Assembly: GCA_045863395.1 (NCBI GenBank)
Contig: BTVJ01000008.1
Coordinates: 110,274 to 174,273 of the forward strand
From: Myxococcales bacterium
GTDB lineage: Bacteria; Myxococcota_A; UBA9042; JABWCM01; BTVJ01
Length of the DNA stretch: 64,000 nt
Direction of reading: 5' to 3'
Part shown: positions 56,284 through 62,382 of the stretch, in pieces
Position numbering within the stretch: position 1 is the stretch's first letter
Layout of the letters: each line of letters starts with the position of its first letter
Program-made: the position numbers and the translations under genes
Notes under the pieces: generated by a model
The model's database searches: none
The model's input: only the letters and a program-made list of their open reading frames with translations
What the model was told of the DNA's origin: nothing

Positions 56284-57660
56284 CTACGACACCCAGCGGG
56301 CGAGTACGGGCTCGCGCGTGCGCGCCTCGGCCAGCAGGTCCTCGAGGGTCAGCGGGTGCCGACCCTCCGTGTGCGACAGCGCCTCGGAGACTCGGGCCAT
56401 CTCCACCCAGTCGCGTCGGTCGAAGGTGGTGGACTTGACAACCACCTGCATCGCGCCCGCCGCAGCGACCAGCCCCCACTCCTCCCGCCTCCGGTCGAGC
56501 GCCGTGCCGCGAAGCAGTAGCAGCGGAAATGCCTTGACGACCGGGACTCGCCTGGCGAGGCACCACGCGACCGTCTGCTCGAAGGAAGCGAGCGTCTGTC
56601 GTGGAAGCCCGAAGATCAGCGAGACCTCGTGGTCGAGCCCTCGCCGCCGCACCTCCGCGAGCACGTCGCTGACCTTTCCGACGTCGTTCATTCGCCGCAC
56701 TGCGCGCCCCTCGTCATCGTGAATGGTCTGCAGCCCGAACTCCAGGCAGACGTCGAGCACCCCGGCCGCCTCCAGGAACTCCTCGGTGACCAGCTCGGCA
56801 CGGCACTGCAACGACAGGCGCCCCTTGAATCCTCGCTCCGCGAAGCGCCGAAGCACCGCGATTGCCTCGGAGCCGGCATTGAAGATGGGGTCGAGGACGG
56901 CGATGGACTGGATCCCCAGCCGACAGAACAAGTCGACCTCTTGTGCGATGCGGCCTGCGGCAAGGTCCCTGCGCAGGAGCCTCGCTCCTGCCTCCCGGTG
57001 CTGGCAGAACGAGCAACGGAACTGGCACCCCCGCTGGGTCTCCCACCTCACGAAGCGCTGCCCTTGGAGCGGCACCGCACCATCCAGCCACGGAGACGGG
57101 AGCGCGCCCAGGTCGACACTGGCCTGGACCTCGATGTCCTTGTGCCCCGGGTAGTGGACACCGACCACCTGCGGCGTTCCTGGTGTCACCGCGAGCACAC
57201 ACAAGGCGTCCTCTCCGTAGCCACGCACGAAGGCGTCGGCGTCGCGGTACACCAGGTCGAGTCCCGCCCCAGCGTAGGAGATCTGTGGGCCACCGAGGAT
57301 GATCCGCCCACGGAACCCCTCGCGGCGCAGGCGGGGCAGGAGCTCCTGAACCTGATCCTCCGCCCACACGTAGACGCCGACGGCGACATCCACGTCGCGA
57401 GGCGACAGCCCGGCGGTCAGAGCCCGGATGGCGGTGGAAGCGCGACCGACGGGCTCCGAGTCGTTGACCGGAATCACAACGGAGTGAACATCGACGCCGG
57501 TCCGGGAGCGCAGGGCGGTCAGCAACGACGCGTGACCGAGCGGGACCCGCGGGTCCTTGTCGCGGGTCCAGAAGAGGTCTACGAGCACGACTCGACGGCC
57601 TCTGCCACTGTGCGGCGTGATGATGGACCCTGATGTGCTGGAGGTGTGCTCGGAGCTCAT
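56284..57660 (-). CDS. B12-binding domain radical SAM protein
   Basis: 'PLGHASL', 'GVYVW', 'IILGGPQIS', 'GYGE' cobalamin-binding-type domain; 'ETQRGCQFRCSFC'; 'FGLQT', 'LIFGLPRQT'. Confidence 0.92.
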   Translation of the reverse strand: MSSEHTSSTSGSIITPHSGRGRRVVLVDLFWTRDKDPRVPLGHASLLTALRSRTGVDVHSVVIPVNDSEPVGRASTAIRALTAGLSPRDVDVAVGVYVWAEDQVQELLPRLRREGFRGRIILGGPQISYAGAGLDLVYRDADAFVRGYGEDALCVLAVTPGTPQVVGVHYPGHKDIEVQASVDLGALPSPWLDGAVPLQGQRFVRWETQRGCQFRCSFCQHREAGARLLRRDLAAGRIAQEVDLFCRLGIQSIAVLDPIFNAGSEAIAVLRRFAERGFKGRLSLQCRAELVTEEFLEAAGVLDVCLEFGLQTIHDDEGRAVRRMNDVGKVSDVLAEVRRRGLDHEVSLIFGLPRQTLASFEQTVAWCLARRVPVVKAFPLLLLRGTALDRRREEWGLVAAAGAMQVVVKSTTFDRRDWVEMARVSEALSHTEGRHPLTLEDLLAEARTREPVLARWVS

Positions 57661-57944
57661 GGCACCCTCCGTGGGCCGGCGGGCACCGTGTGTGTGACGG
57701 TTGGAGGCTCGCCCCACCAGGCCGTGACAACGCTCTGATCGGCGCCAACGATGACGACGAGCTGCCGCGCACGACGAGCTGAGTGCTGCTTGACGGGAAT
57801 CCTGAGCGCATGGACCGCATTCGGTCCGAGCCGGAGCCGTCGACCAAGGGAGACGGTCAGTAGCACCGCGTCGAGCGTGATTCCGCGGGCGGCGAGCCGC
57901 TCGCGAGCATGGTCGGTGAGGCCGACCCAGGTCGTAGGGCGCAT
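57657..57944 (-). CDS. DUF4258-like small protein
   Basis: 'LTDHARERLAARGI...LVVIVGADQSVVTAW'; RBS GGAG; ATGA overlap with the radical SAM gene. Confidence 0.75.
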   Translation of the reverse strand: MRPTTWVGLTDHARERLAARGITLDAVLLTVSLGRRLRLGPNAVHALRIPVKQHSARRARQLVVIVGADQSVVTAWWGEPPTVTHTVPAGPRRVP

Positions 57945-58058
57945 GGGTGTGCTCCGTTGCCGTGGAAGGCCCGGCAGCGGCACCCGCCGCGCCTGACCTT
58001 CATCGAAGCCCATGCGCGAGAGCGGAGTGTGTGACAGGGGTCAGCGATAAAAGTGCGA

Positions 58059-59498
58059 TCAGGTCCCGTCGTGGCGCCGATGCTGGTCGTCGAGCACCTT
58101 CGAGAGGCGGGCCCTCAGCCGCTCGATGCGCTTGCGCACCGCGGCGGCGCCCACCCCGAGGTCCTGGGCGATCTCCTCGCTGGTCCAGCCTTCGACGAGT
58201 CGATCCAACAGGCGCGCGTCGCCCTCCTCCAGGGCACAGAGGACGCGACTGATGTCGAGGCTCCCCTCGTCCAGGGACGAGACCCGAAACAGCCTGTCCT
58301 GGACGATGGCCAGCCCCTCCGGGGACCATGAGCAGGTTGCCCGACTCTTGATGGTGCGGCGCCTCCAACTGTCATTGCCCTTCACGGCGTTCATGAAGTA
58401 CGGGCCCAGGTCGCCGCTGATCTCGCCGGCGCCCGCCTTCTCGCACACCCGCAACATGGTGGCCTGAACCAGGTCCTCCGCGTCGTCCACCGTGTAGCGC
58501 CGATACCTGATGAGCCAGGCCACCGCGATGTCCACGTTTCGCCTGTCGCTTTGACCGGCCGCGACGATTCCAAGCTCCGAGAAGCATCGCTCGACATTAT
58601 CCAGATCCAGCGCGTCGTGAAGTCGCCACAGTCCGAGCGCCCCGACGCTTGCGACCGGCTCCGAGACCCGTGACGACGACTCGTTGCCCGCGAGGGCCTT
58701 CAACCACCGGCGCCCTCCGTCCACCGCCCCGCCCGGCCAGCCCTGGAAGGCCGCCACTGCCTGCTCGTGCAGGTAGTTGATGGAGGCGTACACGATGGCG
58801 GGCATGTTGCCAGTGGTTGGGTCGTCGGCGGCACAGGTCGAGAGCGTATTGCAGGAGCCAGCAAGCAGCAGTCCCGATGCCAGGCCAGCGCGAAACGGAG
58901 TCCGCGAGCCGAGCCGGAAGACCGACCCGACAGTCCACGCGCCCAGCCGAAGGAGCGCCAGCGGCAAGAGGATCAGGGTCCAGATGAGCACCACCAGCGC
59001 TGGCGTCGCCACGATGGCCGTCACAAAGGGCGAGGCATGCAGGCGGTCAATTCCCGCGGCTGTCAGCACAGCCATGCCCGTGAAGACCGCGAGCAGCACG
59101 TGGAGCCAGAGGAGGAAGCGCCTGCCCGGCGACTTTGGCCATCTGCGAAGGGTGCGCGCCAGGAGCACGCTCGCGCCGATCATTGCCAGGCAAGTGGCGG
59201 CGGCGGTCAGGAACGACGACTCCCAGGTGCTGAATCGGAGCGCCCCCAGGGAGTCGAGCGCTGGCGCCAGGAGCGCCACCAGCAGCAGCCCAACGACAGC
59301 ACCGGCGATGAGCAGGACGGGGAGGAGAATCAGGAGGCTGGCTGCAGAAATGGAGAACAACAGGGCCACCGTCGCCCAACGGCTTGATCCTCCTCCTTGA
59401 GGCGGCTGACTGACGGGTCCGGCAGTCGGAGAGTTGGCCGTCCTCATCGGGGCCTCCTCGGCTGCCGGCATACCCTGACCTTGCTCACTCGAGACCAT
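58059..59498 (-). CDS. Multi-TM protein with C-terminal ECF-type sigma70 domain
   Basis: 4-6 hydrophobic helices, then region 2-like 'DDAEDLVQATMLRV' and region 4 HTH 'GWTSEEIAQDLGVGAAAVRKRIERLRARL'; RBS AGGGAGG before ATG 59498. Confidence 0.8.
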   Translation of the reverse strand: MVSSEQGQGMPAAEEAPMRTANSPTAGPVSQPPQGGGSSRWATVALLFSISAASLLILLPVLLIAGAVVGLLLVALLAPALDSLGALRFSTWESSFLTAAATCLAMIGASVLLARTLRRWPKSPGRRFLLWLHVLLAVFTGMAVLTAAGIDRLHASPFVTAIVATPALVVLIWTLILLPLALLRLGAWTVGSVFRLGSRTPFRAGLASGLLLAGSCNTLSTCAADDPTTGNMPAIVYASINYLHEQAVAAFQGWPGGAVDGGRRWLKALAGNESSSRVSEPVASVGALGLWRLHDALDLDNVERCFSELGIVAAGQSDRRNVDIAVAWLIRYRRYTVDDAEDLVQATMLRVCEKAGAGEISGDLGPYFMNAVKGNDSWRRRTIKSRATCSWSPEGLAIVQDRLFRVSSLDEGSLDISRVLCALEEGDARLLDRLVEGWTSEEIAQDLGVGAAAVRKRIERLRARLSKVLDDQHRRHDGT

Positions 59499-60194
59499 GC
59501 CTTCCTCCCTCGCTCCCGGGGTCCCTGCGTGGCGGGCGTACCGTCTGGCCATGGGAGGCGGCCCGCGCGTGACCGCCGGAGATCGCCTCGACGAGCCATG
59601 CCCGCGCACTGACGCGCACGAGTCAGTCTACCAGGACCCGTGGTGAAAGGTCATCGGGAGGTCGCAAGGGAGGTTCAACCGTGAGGGCCAGACGGGCCGG
59701 CGACCCCCGAGGACCCCACCAACGTGGCGCGCGAGCAGCGCAAGGTGGATGGTGAGTTCATGAGCCTGCCAGGCGACGACCACTCCACTTGCCCATGGGC
59801 GTCCACGATCCGACACTCGCAGCGCCCAGGCCCGCGGTGCGATTCGCCATCGACGAGGGACTCGGCCCCTCTGAGCAGGACGCCCTCTTGGTGGCAGACC
59901 TCTCTGCTTCAGGGTGGGTCGGGCTCACGGCCAAGGTTGGATGCGATTGCCCTGGGGTCGGCCCCGACAGAGCCAACGTGGAGGCCAGCTCACTCTTCTC
60001 GTTCCCATCGATGGTCCAGGGGGTGGATGATGCGCTCGTCCACTTCCACGGCCGGGGCGGACTGCCGATCGCACACGTCATCGTGCTAGACTCGCCTGCG
60101 GGCGGCCGCCGCGCCGGCGCCGTCGTCCCAGGTGCAAGCCTGTCGCGGAGCTCCGGCGTCGCCGCGCTGCTCGCGCGACCCAGGGAGGTGACGC

Positions 60195-60809
60195 ATGGAC
60201 AGCAAGGAACACTGGGAGCGCGTCTATGGGGCGAAGCGCCCCGACACCGTGAGCTGGTACCAGGAGCACGCCGAGCGCTCCGTGCGCCTGATCGTGCAGA
60301 CGGGCGTGCCCCTGACCGCGGGGATCATCGACGTGGGCGGTGGCGCCTCGACCCTGGTGGACGACCTGGTCGCGCGGGGCTACAGCGACGTGACGGTGCT
60401 GGATCTCTCCGAGGCGGCCCTGGCCCACGCCCGGGCGCGCCTGGGGGAGACCACCGCAGTCACCTGGCTCGCGGTGGACATCACCCGAGCGACACTGCCC
60501 GTGGAGCGCTACGACGTCTGGCACGACCGGGCGGTGTTTCACTTCCTGACCAACGCCGCTGATCGCGACGCCTACGTGGCCAACGTGCTCCGCTCGGTCC
60601 GGCCCGGCGGTCACGTCATCGTCGCCACGTTCGCGGAGGACGGGCCCGAGCGGTGCAGCGGGCTCCCAGTGGTCCGCTACCGCCCAGACCAGCTCCACGG
60701 TGAGTTTGGCGACGCCTTCGACCTGCGCAGCCACGAGCGTGAGGAGCACCAGACCCCCGGCGGAGCCATCCAGAGCTTCGTGTACTGCTACTGCCGCAAG
60801 GTGGGCTGA
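60195..60809 (+). CDS. Class I SAM-dependent methyltransferase
   Basis: 'HWERVY...VSWYQ', 'IIDVGGGAS', 'VLDLS', 'WHDRAVFHFL', 'GPERCSGL'. Confidence 0.92.
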   Translation: MDSKEHWERVYGAKRPDTVSWYQEHAERSVRLIVQTGVPLTAGIIDVGGGASTLVDDLVARGYSDVTVLDLSEAALAHARARLGETTAVTWLAVDITRATLPVERYDVWHDRAVFHFLTNAADRDAYVANVLRSVRPGGHVIVATFAEDGPERCSGLPVVRYRPDQLHGEFGDAFDLRSHEREEHQTPGGAIQSFVYCYCRKVG

Positions 60810-60989
60810 CAGGCGGCACTCGTTCGTCGTGGAGAGCGCCACCTCCGACGAGGCACACGCCCGCGCACCTCGTGGCTCCGCCTCACGCCACTTGAGCGCC
60901 GGCGCTGTTTCGAGCAGGCCAGGTTGTTTGAGGCGACCGGGCCGCCATCCGAGGCGCTCTGGGGGGGCCACCGCAGAGCGGCGCTCGGG

Positions 60990-61570
60990 AACGCTGACAG
61001 GGGCTGCAACACATGCGCGTCTTGTAGGAGTCCTCGGCCCCCGGCTCCTCGAAACGCTTGCGGATGGCGGCGTGGAGCAGCTCCTTGGCGGTGTCGACCT
61101 CCAACCGTCGCTCCTTGGCGGTCGTGCACTTCGGCTTGAGGAGGCAGTTGGAGGCAGCCCTGGCCAGTCGACGTCTGGATGGGCATGTCGAGGTCCTTCG
61201 GGGGCTTCATCGGAGTGCCGGCCGGGCAGATCACCGCGCCGTCGTCGCCGCGATTGTAGTCGTCGCGCTTGAACATCTCCACGTCGCCGGTCTTCCGGGT
61301 ACCCTCCGTGGGCGGAGGGACCACGATGTCCACGGTCTCGCGCGCCTCCTGGATGTACACCTGGTCGTCATCGCCGAGGAAGCCGGCGTCCGCGGCAGCG
61401 CGCAGGGGGCTCTCCTCGGGCAGCCCCGCCTTGGTCAGGCGCTCGCGAGCGTCTGTTATCGCCGCCCGAAGCTGGCCATGGTCGGTCGGCGCCTTGCTGA
61501 TGATGAGACCGACGACGATGCGGGCCCGCTGGCCGGCACCGGTCGCCACGATGCGGTGGCCCGGGGCGGA
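60990..61570 (-). mobile_element. IS1182-family transposase remnant (truncated, frameshifted)
   Basis: 'AADAGF' DDE-type motif, 'VICPAG', then a frame change near 61160 into 'NCLLKPKCTTAKERRLEV...YKTRM'; no N-terminus; ends approximate. Confidence 0.7.
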
Positions 61571-61574
61571 CGCG

Positions 61575-61802
61575 CCGCTCGGAAACTTCATGAGGCGACA
61601 CCCCCTACGGAGAGGCCCGAGACCCGCCGACGTGGACTCCAGCGCCGACGCCTTTGCGGCGCTGCGGGACCTCGGCTTCAGCGAGACCGAGTCCCGCCAG
61701 GCACTGGCCGCCGCCCGCACCCACGTGGGTGTAGGGGCGAGCGCCGAGGCGCTGATCACCGCCGCGCTCCGACTGCCCCAATCCCTCGACCGCGCCGCGT
61801 GA
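61575..61802 (+). pseudogene. RuvA C-terminal-domain fragment, likely the tail of a truncated gene
   Basis: 'ADAFAALRDLGFSETESRQAL...SAEALITAALR'; abuts the IS remnant in the opposite orientation. Confidence 0.6.
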
Positions 61803-62382
61803 GCCCGCGGCCCCAAGAGGCCACACGAAACCCCGGCGAACCGGGTGAGGGGCGGGCACCGCCTCCCACCATCGGACGACCCAGCCAGGCGTCTCACCCC
61901 GGCGCCTCCCGGCCAGGGCCCGAGCCAGCCCGCGTCGAGCCTGCCGACCGAGCCGCCCCTCCGGCGCACACGCTGGCTCCCCTCTCCGAGTCCCGAGGAC
62001 CTCCCCCGGATGCCGCGGCGGCAGCGGACCGCCTGCCAGGGCGGGCGCCACCGGCGATGAGTCCAATGATGGCAAGTGGTTGCATTTCATTGCCCCTGTG
62101 ATGGTTCGCGCGTCTGGACCCCCCTCGCCGCGACCATGACCATACTCAGGAGGCACTGGCGGGCCCGCGCCCGGGCGTCACGCTCTCGACAGGGGAGGCG
62201 GTACTCTGATGAGGGTCTCTCTCGTGGATTCGTATCCAAATGAAGCCGGAGTCGTATCTTGTCGATGTGGGAAGAGGACTGAGTCCTGGAAACACCCAGC
62301 AGAGAGTCCCACCATCGCTGATTCAGTCCTCTCCCGCCCTTGGGGATGGCACTGTGCATCTCCCAAAAAGGAGGCAAGGAAC

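Follow-up and report, generated by a model that had tools for sequence, protein, structure and literature searches.

The DNA stretch analysed here, hereafter the window, comprises 64,000 nucleotides of contig BTVJ01000008.1 (positions 110,274 to 174,273) from a Myxococcales bacterium. As an earlier sequence-only reading had described, it carries on its minus strand a cassette of three co-oriented and intact open reading frames (ORFs), encoding a membrane-anchored sigma factor of the extracytoplasmic function (ECF) type (479 residues, 58059-59498), a DUF4258-like small protein (95 residues, 57657-57944) and a cobalamin-dependent radical S-adenosylmethionine (SAM) enzyme, PDC-M51A (458 residues, 56284-57660). 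Comparison with related loci points to a one-component, membrane-sequestered ECF sigma factor that would induce various antiviral operons, as part of a cassette with interchangeable parts. It is considered likely that this sigma factor reads a bipartite promoter, TGTCAC-N15-GTGG, and an antiviral regulon is judged equally likely; the joint claim that it controls the window operon and that this operon is antiviral is favoured more cautiously. The whole model rests on sequence comparison, and the three-gene set is rare, being intact in three genomes.

Sigma family, promoter and neighbouring defence systems

Iterated searches gathered a family of 32 loci in 30 genomes of Myxococcota, whose proteins combine N-terminal membrane helices with C-terminal sigma-2/sigma-4 regions; word-index searches retrieved 2-3 proteins only. 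Five plain ECF matches were removed during curation (of the five borderline matches fetched, four proved to be plain ECFs; G393:C12 was likewise dropped), and the count leaves out about 20 weaker matches (E 1e-17 to 1e-15). Members are about 20-25% identical to each other, share two invariant cysteines and are best conserved in the sigma-4 helix-turn-helix. In the window protein, assigned from domain matches, a structure model and the family alignment, five N-terminal helices (about residues 40-224) are followed by an 80-residue linker and by sigma-2/sigma-4 (about residues 299-477), the chain ending after sigma-4 with no SnoaL domain. The sigma region matches TIGR02937 below cut-off (residues 325-468, E 4e-9), PF08281 above cut-off and PF04542 weakly, and in Pfam no DUF2275 is detected at E 0.1 or lower. 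By fold and features alike, its best matches, though weak, are to ECF sigma factors, and its AlphaFold model, a poor one (pTM 0.32), displays five long helices and then an unstructured linker.

A known or candidate defence system lies beside the sigma gene in 17 of the 30 informative loci, the other two of the 32 being at contig ends. Viperin is the neighbour in eight loci (directly downstream in G082, G198, G420, G259, G457 and G173, divergent in G052, and past a beta-CASP gene in G285), and PDC-M51A in five (via the DUF4258-like gene in G012, G458 and G000, the source genome; divergent in G179; a stub in G393). Mokosh MkoA is found in two (G297, G001), CBASS in one (G122, with a SAVED gene on one side of the sigma gene and the cyclase and E1-E2 genes on the other) and BREX in one (G352, beta-CASP-PglZ-BrxD-BrxHI).

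Within the class of G082 (113 genomes), viperin occurs in 15 genomes, that is, in 8 of the 16 sigma-bearing ones versus 7 of the 97 others, counts in which kin are not independent. A sigma gene lies within two genes of six of these 15 viperins, and DUF4258 is fused to or beside five. The gene order is sigma followed by viperin-kinase in G082, G198 and G173, and sigma, DUF4258, M51A and kinase in G012 and G458; the PDC-M51B model gives the best score for the kinases that follow viperin in G420, G285 and G173. Since the sigma factor, DUF4258 and an M51B-type kinase recur with both viperin and PDC-M51A, they constitute a common frame in which the two enzymes are interchangeable. The linkage of viperin with its kinase is functional (10.1101/2023.09.13.557418).

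Past the stop codon of the window sigma gene stands TGTCACA-N15-CATGGG (58036-58009), and after it a predicted hairpin and then a ribosome-binding site, in keeping with the bipartite ECF-type promoter of the family. The -35 element predicted by the promoter matrix, TGTCACA (58030-58036, minus strand), is separated by 15 nt from a predicted -10 element, CATGGG (58009-58014, minus strand; family consensus about (C/A)GTGGA), and past the presumed start site a leader hairpin is predicted by folding (57965-58001, minus strand; -26.7 kcal/mol, z -3.0). A stem-loop is predicted at this position in all 13 loci folded, with z of -2 or lower in five. The matrix was trained on six loci, with 9.5 bits or more taken as a pass, and it is positive in 9 of 13 held-out loci (null fractions 0.015 or less) and in one of eight in a second held-out set (G297); three further loci of the first search, including G012, fail it. 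In total, 10 of the 24 non-seed loci pass, spanning seven genera, where chance would give about 1%, and none of four plain ECF control genes passes. A promoter downstream of the sigma gene, which the sequence-only reading had its sigma domain drive, is conserved across family loci and of ECF type; its position in the window, 58009-58036, and the missing kinase partner discussed below are points absent from that reading.

When the target gene is divergent, the motif faces it, as observed for viperin in G052 (21.9 bits, an untrained locus) and for PDC-M51A in G179. Among viperins with no adjacent sigma gene none of nine reaches 9 bits; for two of them the upstream DNA was shorter than 220 nt, and three positive sites in this comparison came from the training set. 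Across the source genome the matrix gives 268 sites of at least 13 bits, the window site being ninth, from which no regulon can be defined.

Several observations weigh against a dedicated antiviral regulator acting at this promoter. The motif goes undetected in 14 of the 24 non-seed loci; the complete cassette of G012 and the viperin locus of G173 are among them. No recognised defence system lies by the sigma gene in 13 of the 30 informative loci, where the neighbours are a beta-CASP nuclease (three), a TauD-GRDP fusion (three), another B12 radical SAM protein (one) or genes with no assignment (six). Sigma gene and motif are both absent at most PDC-M51A loci, G393 retains only an enzyme stub, and four family members are broken (G008, G420, G457 and G285). 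In addition, ECF41 and ECF103 have the same -35 heptamer, TGTCACA (PMC7826278, supplement), so that another sigma factor could read the window promoter. Both differ from the window family in the -10 element (GTGG in the family, CGTC in ECF41), and ECF41 also in its SnoaL domain.

Two other kinds of neighbour recur in these loci. A TauD dioxygenase joined to a GRDP-like domain, by fusion or as a neighbour, and either placed under this promoter or lying by the sigma gene (L211:3476-4816, L212:612-1802, L213:5981-7321, L173:8712-9841), is a candidate uncharacterised defence output. A beta-CASP metallo-beta-lactamase nuclease is found by the sigma gene or by PDC-M51A (L173:4967-6739, L205:9895-11691, L213:7400-10111, L214:6523-7719, L263:2006-3772, L056:1273-2853), with no PADLOC match where scanned.

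Among described regulators, DdvS/DdvA of Myxococcus xanthus (PMC11506125, PMC6061681) also joins an ECF sigma factor and a membrane component at a defence island, in the same phylum. It controls an island with CBASS and CRISPR-Cas by means of a soluble sigma factor and a separate anti-sigma factor with a periplasmic TPR-CHAT part (PMC11506125), and the -35 element of its promoter is of AAc type (PMC6061681). On the contrary, the window sigma factor is itself a membrane protein, uses a TGTCAC -35 element and has targets that vary by locus, and no anti-sigma gene, the DdvA TPR-CHAT type included, was found beside its gene. The nearest architecture is that of ECF36s3, an ECF core fused to membrane helices with the same order of parts, described for Mycobacterium only and with an N-terminal DUF2275 extension of 3-4 helices, whereas the window family lacks DUF2275 and is found in Myxococcota; ECF263 carries its helices C-terminal to the ECF core (PMC7826278). 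Compared by their descriptions, ECF36s3, ECF41, ECF103 and ECF263 all differ from the window family in its invariant cysteine pair, predicted C-out topology and defence context. ECFs with N-terminal extensions are little understood (PMC8103513), and no account of this sigma family was found in the open literature, subscription papers and bioRxiv supplements being outside the search.

Topology and cysteines of the sigma factor

The 27 intact family members were evaluated with a simple hydropathy and charge script. In 25 of them the 20-residue segment ahead of the last helix carries a more positive charge than the 20-residue segment behind it, and in 21 a single helix of 19-30 residues is preceded by a basic segment and followed by an acidic one. 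By the positive-inside rule, one, three or five helices place the following domain in the periplasm. The sigma domain of the window protein contains Cys305, Cys352 (invariant in the family), Cys389 and Cys421; the number of cysteines in this domain is even in 24 of 27 members, and the second pair differs in position between them. Their frequency amounts to 2.6%, versus 0.8% in 20 sigma-like proteins of the source genome, in which parity is random (7 even out of 15). This charge bias, together with the paired cysteines, makes it rather probable that the sigma domain is periplasmic at rest, an odd place for a transcription factor. DsbB was not found in the source genome; nonetheless, it has four VKOR genes, which makes disulfide formation plausible. 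In G297 the gene immediately upstream of the sigma gene encodes three DsbA-like thioredoxin domains (L258:9178-11289), a single case that is consistent with a disulfide link.

The resting sigma domain would then be kept off RNA polymerase by topology and not by an anti-sigma factor, through an odd number of helices, a periplasmic location and paired cysteines, a step to which about the same moderate confidence is given. As the likeliest trigger, though one given little confidence, infection or envelope damage could upset protein export or disulfide formation, in such a way that newly made, reduced sigma domain stays cytoplasmic, either tethered or clipped, and turns the operon on. The sequence-only reading, in which a membrane signal frees the sigma domain, presumed a cytoplasmic domain, and in this respect it would have to be revised, the sequence evidence favouring a periplasm-facing one. 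A soluble isoform from an internal start was considered and rejected, a linker start led by a Shine-Dalgarno sequence being present in 4 of 27 members only.

Two features weigh against the periplasmic placement: the fifth helix of the window protein is weakly hydrophobic and is missed by one prediction, and the last hydrophobic stretch reaches 31-40 residues in 6 of 27 members, where it might form a hairpin. Both suit an alternative with the same regulon but a cytoplasmic sigma domain, held at the membrane as by a fused anti-sigma factor of the ECF36s3 type and freed by intramembrane proteolysis, its cysteines forming a switch that responds to redox state or to a metal, like that of SigK. Such an arrangement requires no unusual trafficking, explains how a domain with a conserved promoter reaches DNA, and has described counterparts in the N-terminal 3-4 helix extension of ECF36s3 and in the SigK disulfide (PMC7826278). 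It is nevertheless considered somewhat unlikely, given the basic-before, acidic-after pattern around a single helix in most members, the extra cysteines paired at varying positions, which fit disulfides above a fixed metal site, and the one-helix form of the broken G008 member, in which a single signal-anchor-like segment lies directly ahead of the sigma domain.

The periplasmic topology can also be taken at face value, the exported sigma-like domain being inactive in its producer and serving as a decoy, a receptor or a warning passed to neighbour cells after cleavage or lysis, with the promoter read by another ECF. The -35 element common to ECF41 and ECF103 would allow for it, and the members of G046, G057 and G087, from one genus, look degenerate, with neither motif nor adjacent defence gene. 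On the contrary, the motif tracks the adjacent sigma gene, as described above for viperins, conservation in the family is highest at the sigma-4 helix-turn-helix, and no uptake route for a folded periplasmic domain is evident; this explanation is regarded as very improbable.

The radical SAM enzyme and its partners

Running the PADLOC check that the sequence-only reading had called for identified the enzyme as PDC-M51A (E 1.2e-137, model positions 5-416 of 420), a predicted defence protein, in line with the defence link then suspected for the module. PDC sets were predicted from embedding as phage defence candidates by Payne et al. (10.1101/2024.01.29.577857), with figure legend examples that include radical SAM and deoxynucleoside kinase domains, the name PDC-M51 not appearing in the main text. 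No description of the function of PDC-M51 was found within the open literature defined above. The window enzyme corresponds to protein A of PDC-M51 (PDLC04689/PDLC04690, PADLOC-DB 2.0) over its full length, and the kinases downstream of its relatives to PDC-M51B; the window differs in having no M51B, and DUF4258, sigma factor and promoter are outside both PDC-M51 models.

The DLFWTRDKDPRVPLGHASL stretch, the B12-binding domain (PF02310, E 2e-4, under the Pfam cut-off) and the CxxxCxxC motif (residues 212-219, about 57004-57027) reported for the protein were all recovered. Its structure model (pLDDT 91) is closest to the folds of CysS and TokK (TM 0.73-0.76), followed by TsrM, AprD4 and OxsB (TM 0.68 for OxsB), and displays the layout of class I cobalamin-dependent methyltransferases, with an N-terminal Rossmann cobalamin domain and a radical SAM barrel with CxxxCxxC. 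Of these fold matches, OxsB acts on deoxyadenosine phosphates. C212, C216 and C219 are invariant in 44 enzyme sequences, as is Trp99, which aligns with TokK Trp76. In TokK this is the lower-axial position, where a hydrophobic residue is the mark of radical methyltransferases; polar residues stand there in TsrM and in OxsB, the B12 radical SAM enzyme of the oxetanocin A pathway (PMC12931638). Owing to the CysS/TokK-like fold and to Trp99, the best guess is a C-methyltransferase, predicted to methylate and not to dehydrate as viperin does. Against it, His221, at least 90% conserved, occupies in the sequence alignment the position of TokK Trp215, between cobalamin and cluster. TokK and CysS, even being the best sequence and fold matches, are about 21% identical to the enzyme and longer (620-730 residues versus 458), their large C-terminal domain is missing here, and no biosynthetic cluster is present at the window locus. 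The enzyme family itself is well conserved, with 55-65% identity across the top 120 matches.

Enzyme loci were mapped in the best 80 of 238 metagenome loci, three genome loci and 30 phylum genomes, and dereplication at 85% identity left 47 high-GC loci. The commonest partner is a thymidylate-kinase-like PDC-M51B gene, directly downstream of the enzyme in 19 of the 42 high-GC loci with enough flank. A DUF4258-like gene lies beside the enzyme in 14 of 38 dereplicated high-GC loci, a count that is partly circular because 11 of these neighbours served to build the profile; Pfam alone places DUF4258 above cut-off in L017, L019, L143 and L146. The membrane sigma gene is adjacent in 4 of 39. The three genes had been read as one system; however, they are intact together only in G000, G012 and G458, and a fixed three-gene system is rejected by the sigma and DUF4258 counts.

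Other PDC-M51A loci adjoin BREX, DISARM-type helicases, Mrr, type IV restriction enzymes and HEPN/RES proteins. Ophion (10.1101/2025.09.30.679545) was set aside as a relative, since its partners differ (PHP, PRTase). Viperin and PDC-M51A occur at the same locus, about 870 bases apart and with no sigma gene, in L080:2476-5633; DUF2325-like proteins recur by PDC-M51A, viperin or the sigma gene (L018:3848-4924, L027:5938-7512, L157:3967-5886, L208:7012-7326, L083:1741-2148); and in G265 a Tc toxin TcA-like gene is divergent from PDC-M51A (L145:3-7106).

Prokaryotic viperin with its kinase (pVip, VakA/CMPK2-like) resembles PDC-M51 in the succession of a radical SAM enzyme and a nucleoside monophosphate kinase, and in sister loci with the same sigma factor, promoter, DUF4258 and kinase family. 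PDC-M51A differs in its cobalamin-binding domain and gives no match to pVip models at E 0.1 or lower, so that the claim is one of acting in viperin's place and not of membership. The output in the window would consist of DUF4258 and PDC-M51A, the latter as a TokK/CysS-like radical C-methyltransferase. That PDC-M51A modifies a nucleotide is slightly favoured; it is a more doubtful step that the thymidylate-kinase-like partner supplies or phosphorylates this nucleotide, yielding a C-methyl analogue that poisons phage polymerases. C-methyl nucleosides terminate chains.

No kinase was found near the window enzyme gene, which thus stands outside the two-gene definition of PDC-M51. The sole strong M51B match of the source genome is on contig C3, in another cassette (L104:9186-11738; G000:C3:245185-247737, minus strand) that encodes a 298-residue radical SAM protein with a weak pVip match only, an AAA_28 kinase, a GreA-like protein and the PDC-M51B-like kinase. 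It lies directly before a BREX/Pgl system, has a similarly low G+C content at third codon positions (GC3, 0.80-0.90) and possibly represents a third radical SAM and kinase system; no motif was found before it in the genome matrix scan. The kinase tree groups the C3 kinase with M51B proteins and is too weak to order events. The kinase may have been lost from the window locus, in which case the C3 kinase, of the same family, could act in trans. GreA-like genes are also found beside PDC-M51A in L156 and L160.

A low-GC clade of 22 loci speaks against this scheme, with no kinase (0/14), DUF4258 (0/12) or sigma gene (0/16); the absence of kinase and DUF4258 implies that the enzyme may act with no kinase. 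The clade is well supported and, in a quick tree, nested in the enzyme tree among Myxococcota sequences (low- and mid-GC metagenome loci L026, L029-L055, L057-L058, L061-L062, L064-L070, L072-L076, L090-L098, L100). A class I lysyl-tRNA synthetase lies nearby in L100, and other neighbours look, by eye, TFIIB- and Trm1-like, which suggests archaeal hosts and transfer between domains.

The assignment of the small protein as DUF4258-like stands in part: its match to PF14076 is under cut-off (E 0.0026), while its Atlas structure neighbours are DUF4258 proteins, and no solved relative was found by sequence. His12, Arg16, Arg20 and Thr74 are invariant in 11 DUF4258-like neighbours of radical SAM genes. 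DUF4258 is presumably tied to the RelE/BrnT-like fold, and the protein could be an accessory common to both enzyme types, acting as a transcription-gated RNase-type effector, a role that is conceivable but short of being favoured. At L171:1044-2831, viperin, a deoxynucleotide monophosphate kinase and DUF4258 are all three fused together.

The accessory cassette and its meaning

The looser codon bias noticed in the three genes is confirmed, with GC3 of 0.83 (sigma), 0.74 (DUF4258-like) and 0.845 (radical SAM), versus 0.91-0.98 in six correctly framed upstream genes of the flanks and a genome median of 0.926. Among the 5534 genes called in this genome (8.8 Mb, 186 contigs, Myxococcota) they rank in the lowest 2.0%, 0.0% and 3.5%, respectively, percentiles that are possibly too extreme since the gene caller was trained mainly on high-GC3 genes. 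The ATGA coupling of the DUF4258-like and radical SAM genes is likewise found, as an overlap at 57657-57660, and GGAGG precedes the radical SAM start. The accessory character proposed for the module agrees with an orthologue being present in 2 of 40 relatives and in 31 of 401 phylum genomes.

Neither flanking tRNA nor integrase nor convincing terminal repeats were found around the cassette, and a phage, plasmid or viral origin was rejected, the enzyme having no match in phage records, plasmid records or viral contigs. Contigs of four sludge metatranscriptomes overlap parts of the sigma gene and its flanks and little of the enzyme gene; level, strand and start cannot be read from contigs. Divergent from the sigma gene, a 98-residue ORF (59789-60085, plus strand; GC3 0.79, no Pfam family) may be part of the acquired segment. 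Fragments at 60788-62156 resemble, by eye, a transposase and an HNH/RuvA-tail protein; two long ORFs tested gave no Pfam match.

The near flanks are of housekeeping type (HlyIII, SAM methyltransferase). This fact, together with the kinase missing from the window, the lack of motif ahead of the C3 kinase cassette, the low-GC clade devoid of any partner and the predicted nature of PDC systems (10.1101/2024.01.29.577857), would suit a module serving general stress or modification, or the remains of one in decay, whose enzyme methylates tRNA, a DNA base, a protein or a metabolite and whose defence link reflects shared insertion hotspots. However, the three ORFs and the promoter are all intact, viperin is found elsewhere with this regulator, DUF4258 and kinase family, its linkage to the kinase is functional (10.1101/2023.09.13.557418), and other PDC-M51A loci adjoin the restriction and defence genes listed above. 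Such a non-defence or decaying module is held to be improbable.

A further-reaching reading can be put as one statement: a family of sigma factors silenced by export and a disulfide lock, for which failed export or oxidation during infection would itself be the alarm that turns on viperin, CBASS, Mokosh, BREX or PDC-M51, the output in the window being a cobalamin-dependent viperin counterpart making a natural C-methylated antiviral nucleotide. This reading is considered unlikely.

For the window locus, the nearest known regulator is DdvS/DdvA and the nearest architecture that of ECF36s3, while the enzyme is a member of PDC-M51A. How anti-phage defence is switched on is an open question with few dedicated regulators known, and here one portable regulator with a defined promoter would stand ahead of five unrelated defence outputs. 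If true, a sigma factor resting in the periplasm would be a mode of control not found described in the open literature, and there is a real chance that this family represents a new regulatory principle. That PDC-M51A takes the place of viperin within one frame also provides an enzymological hypothesis, B12-dependent methylation of a nucleotide, possibly giving a new natural antiviral nucleotide analogue, and PDC-M51A may be a new counterpart of viperin.

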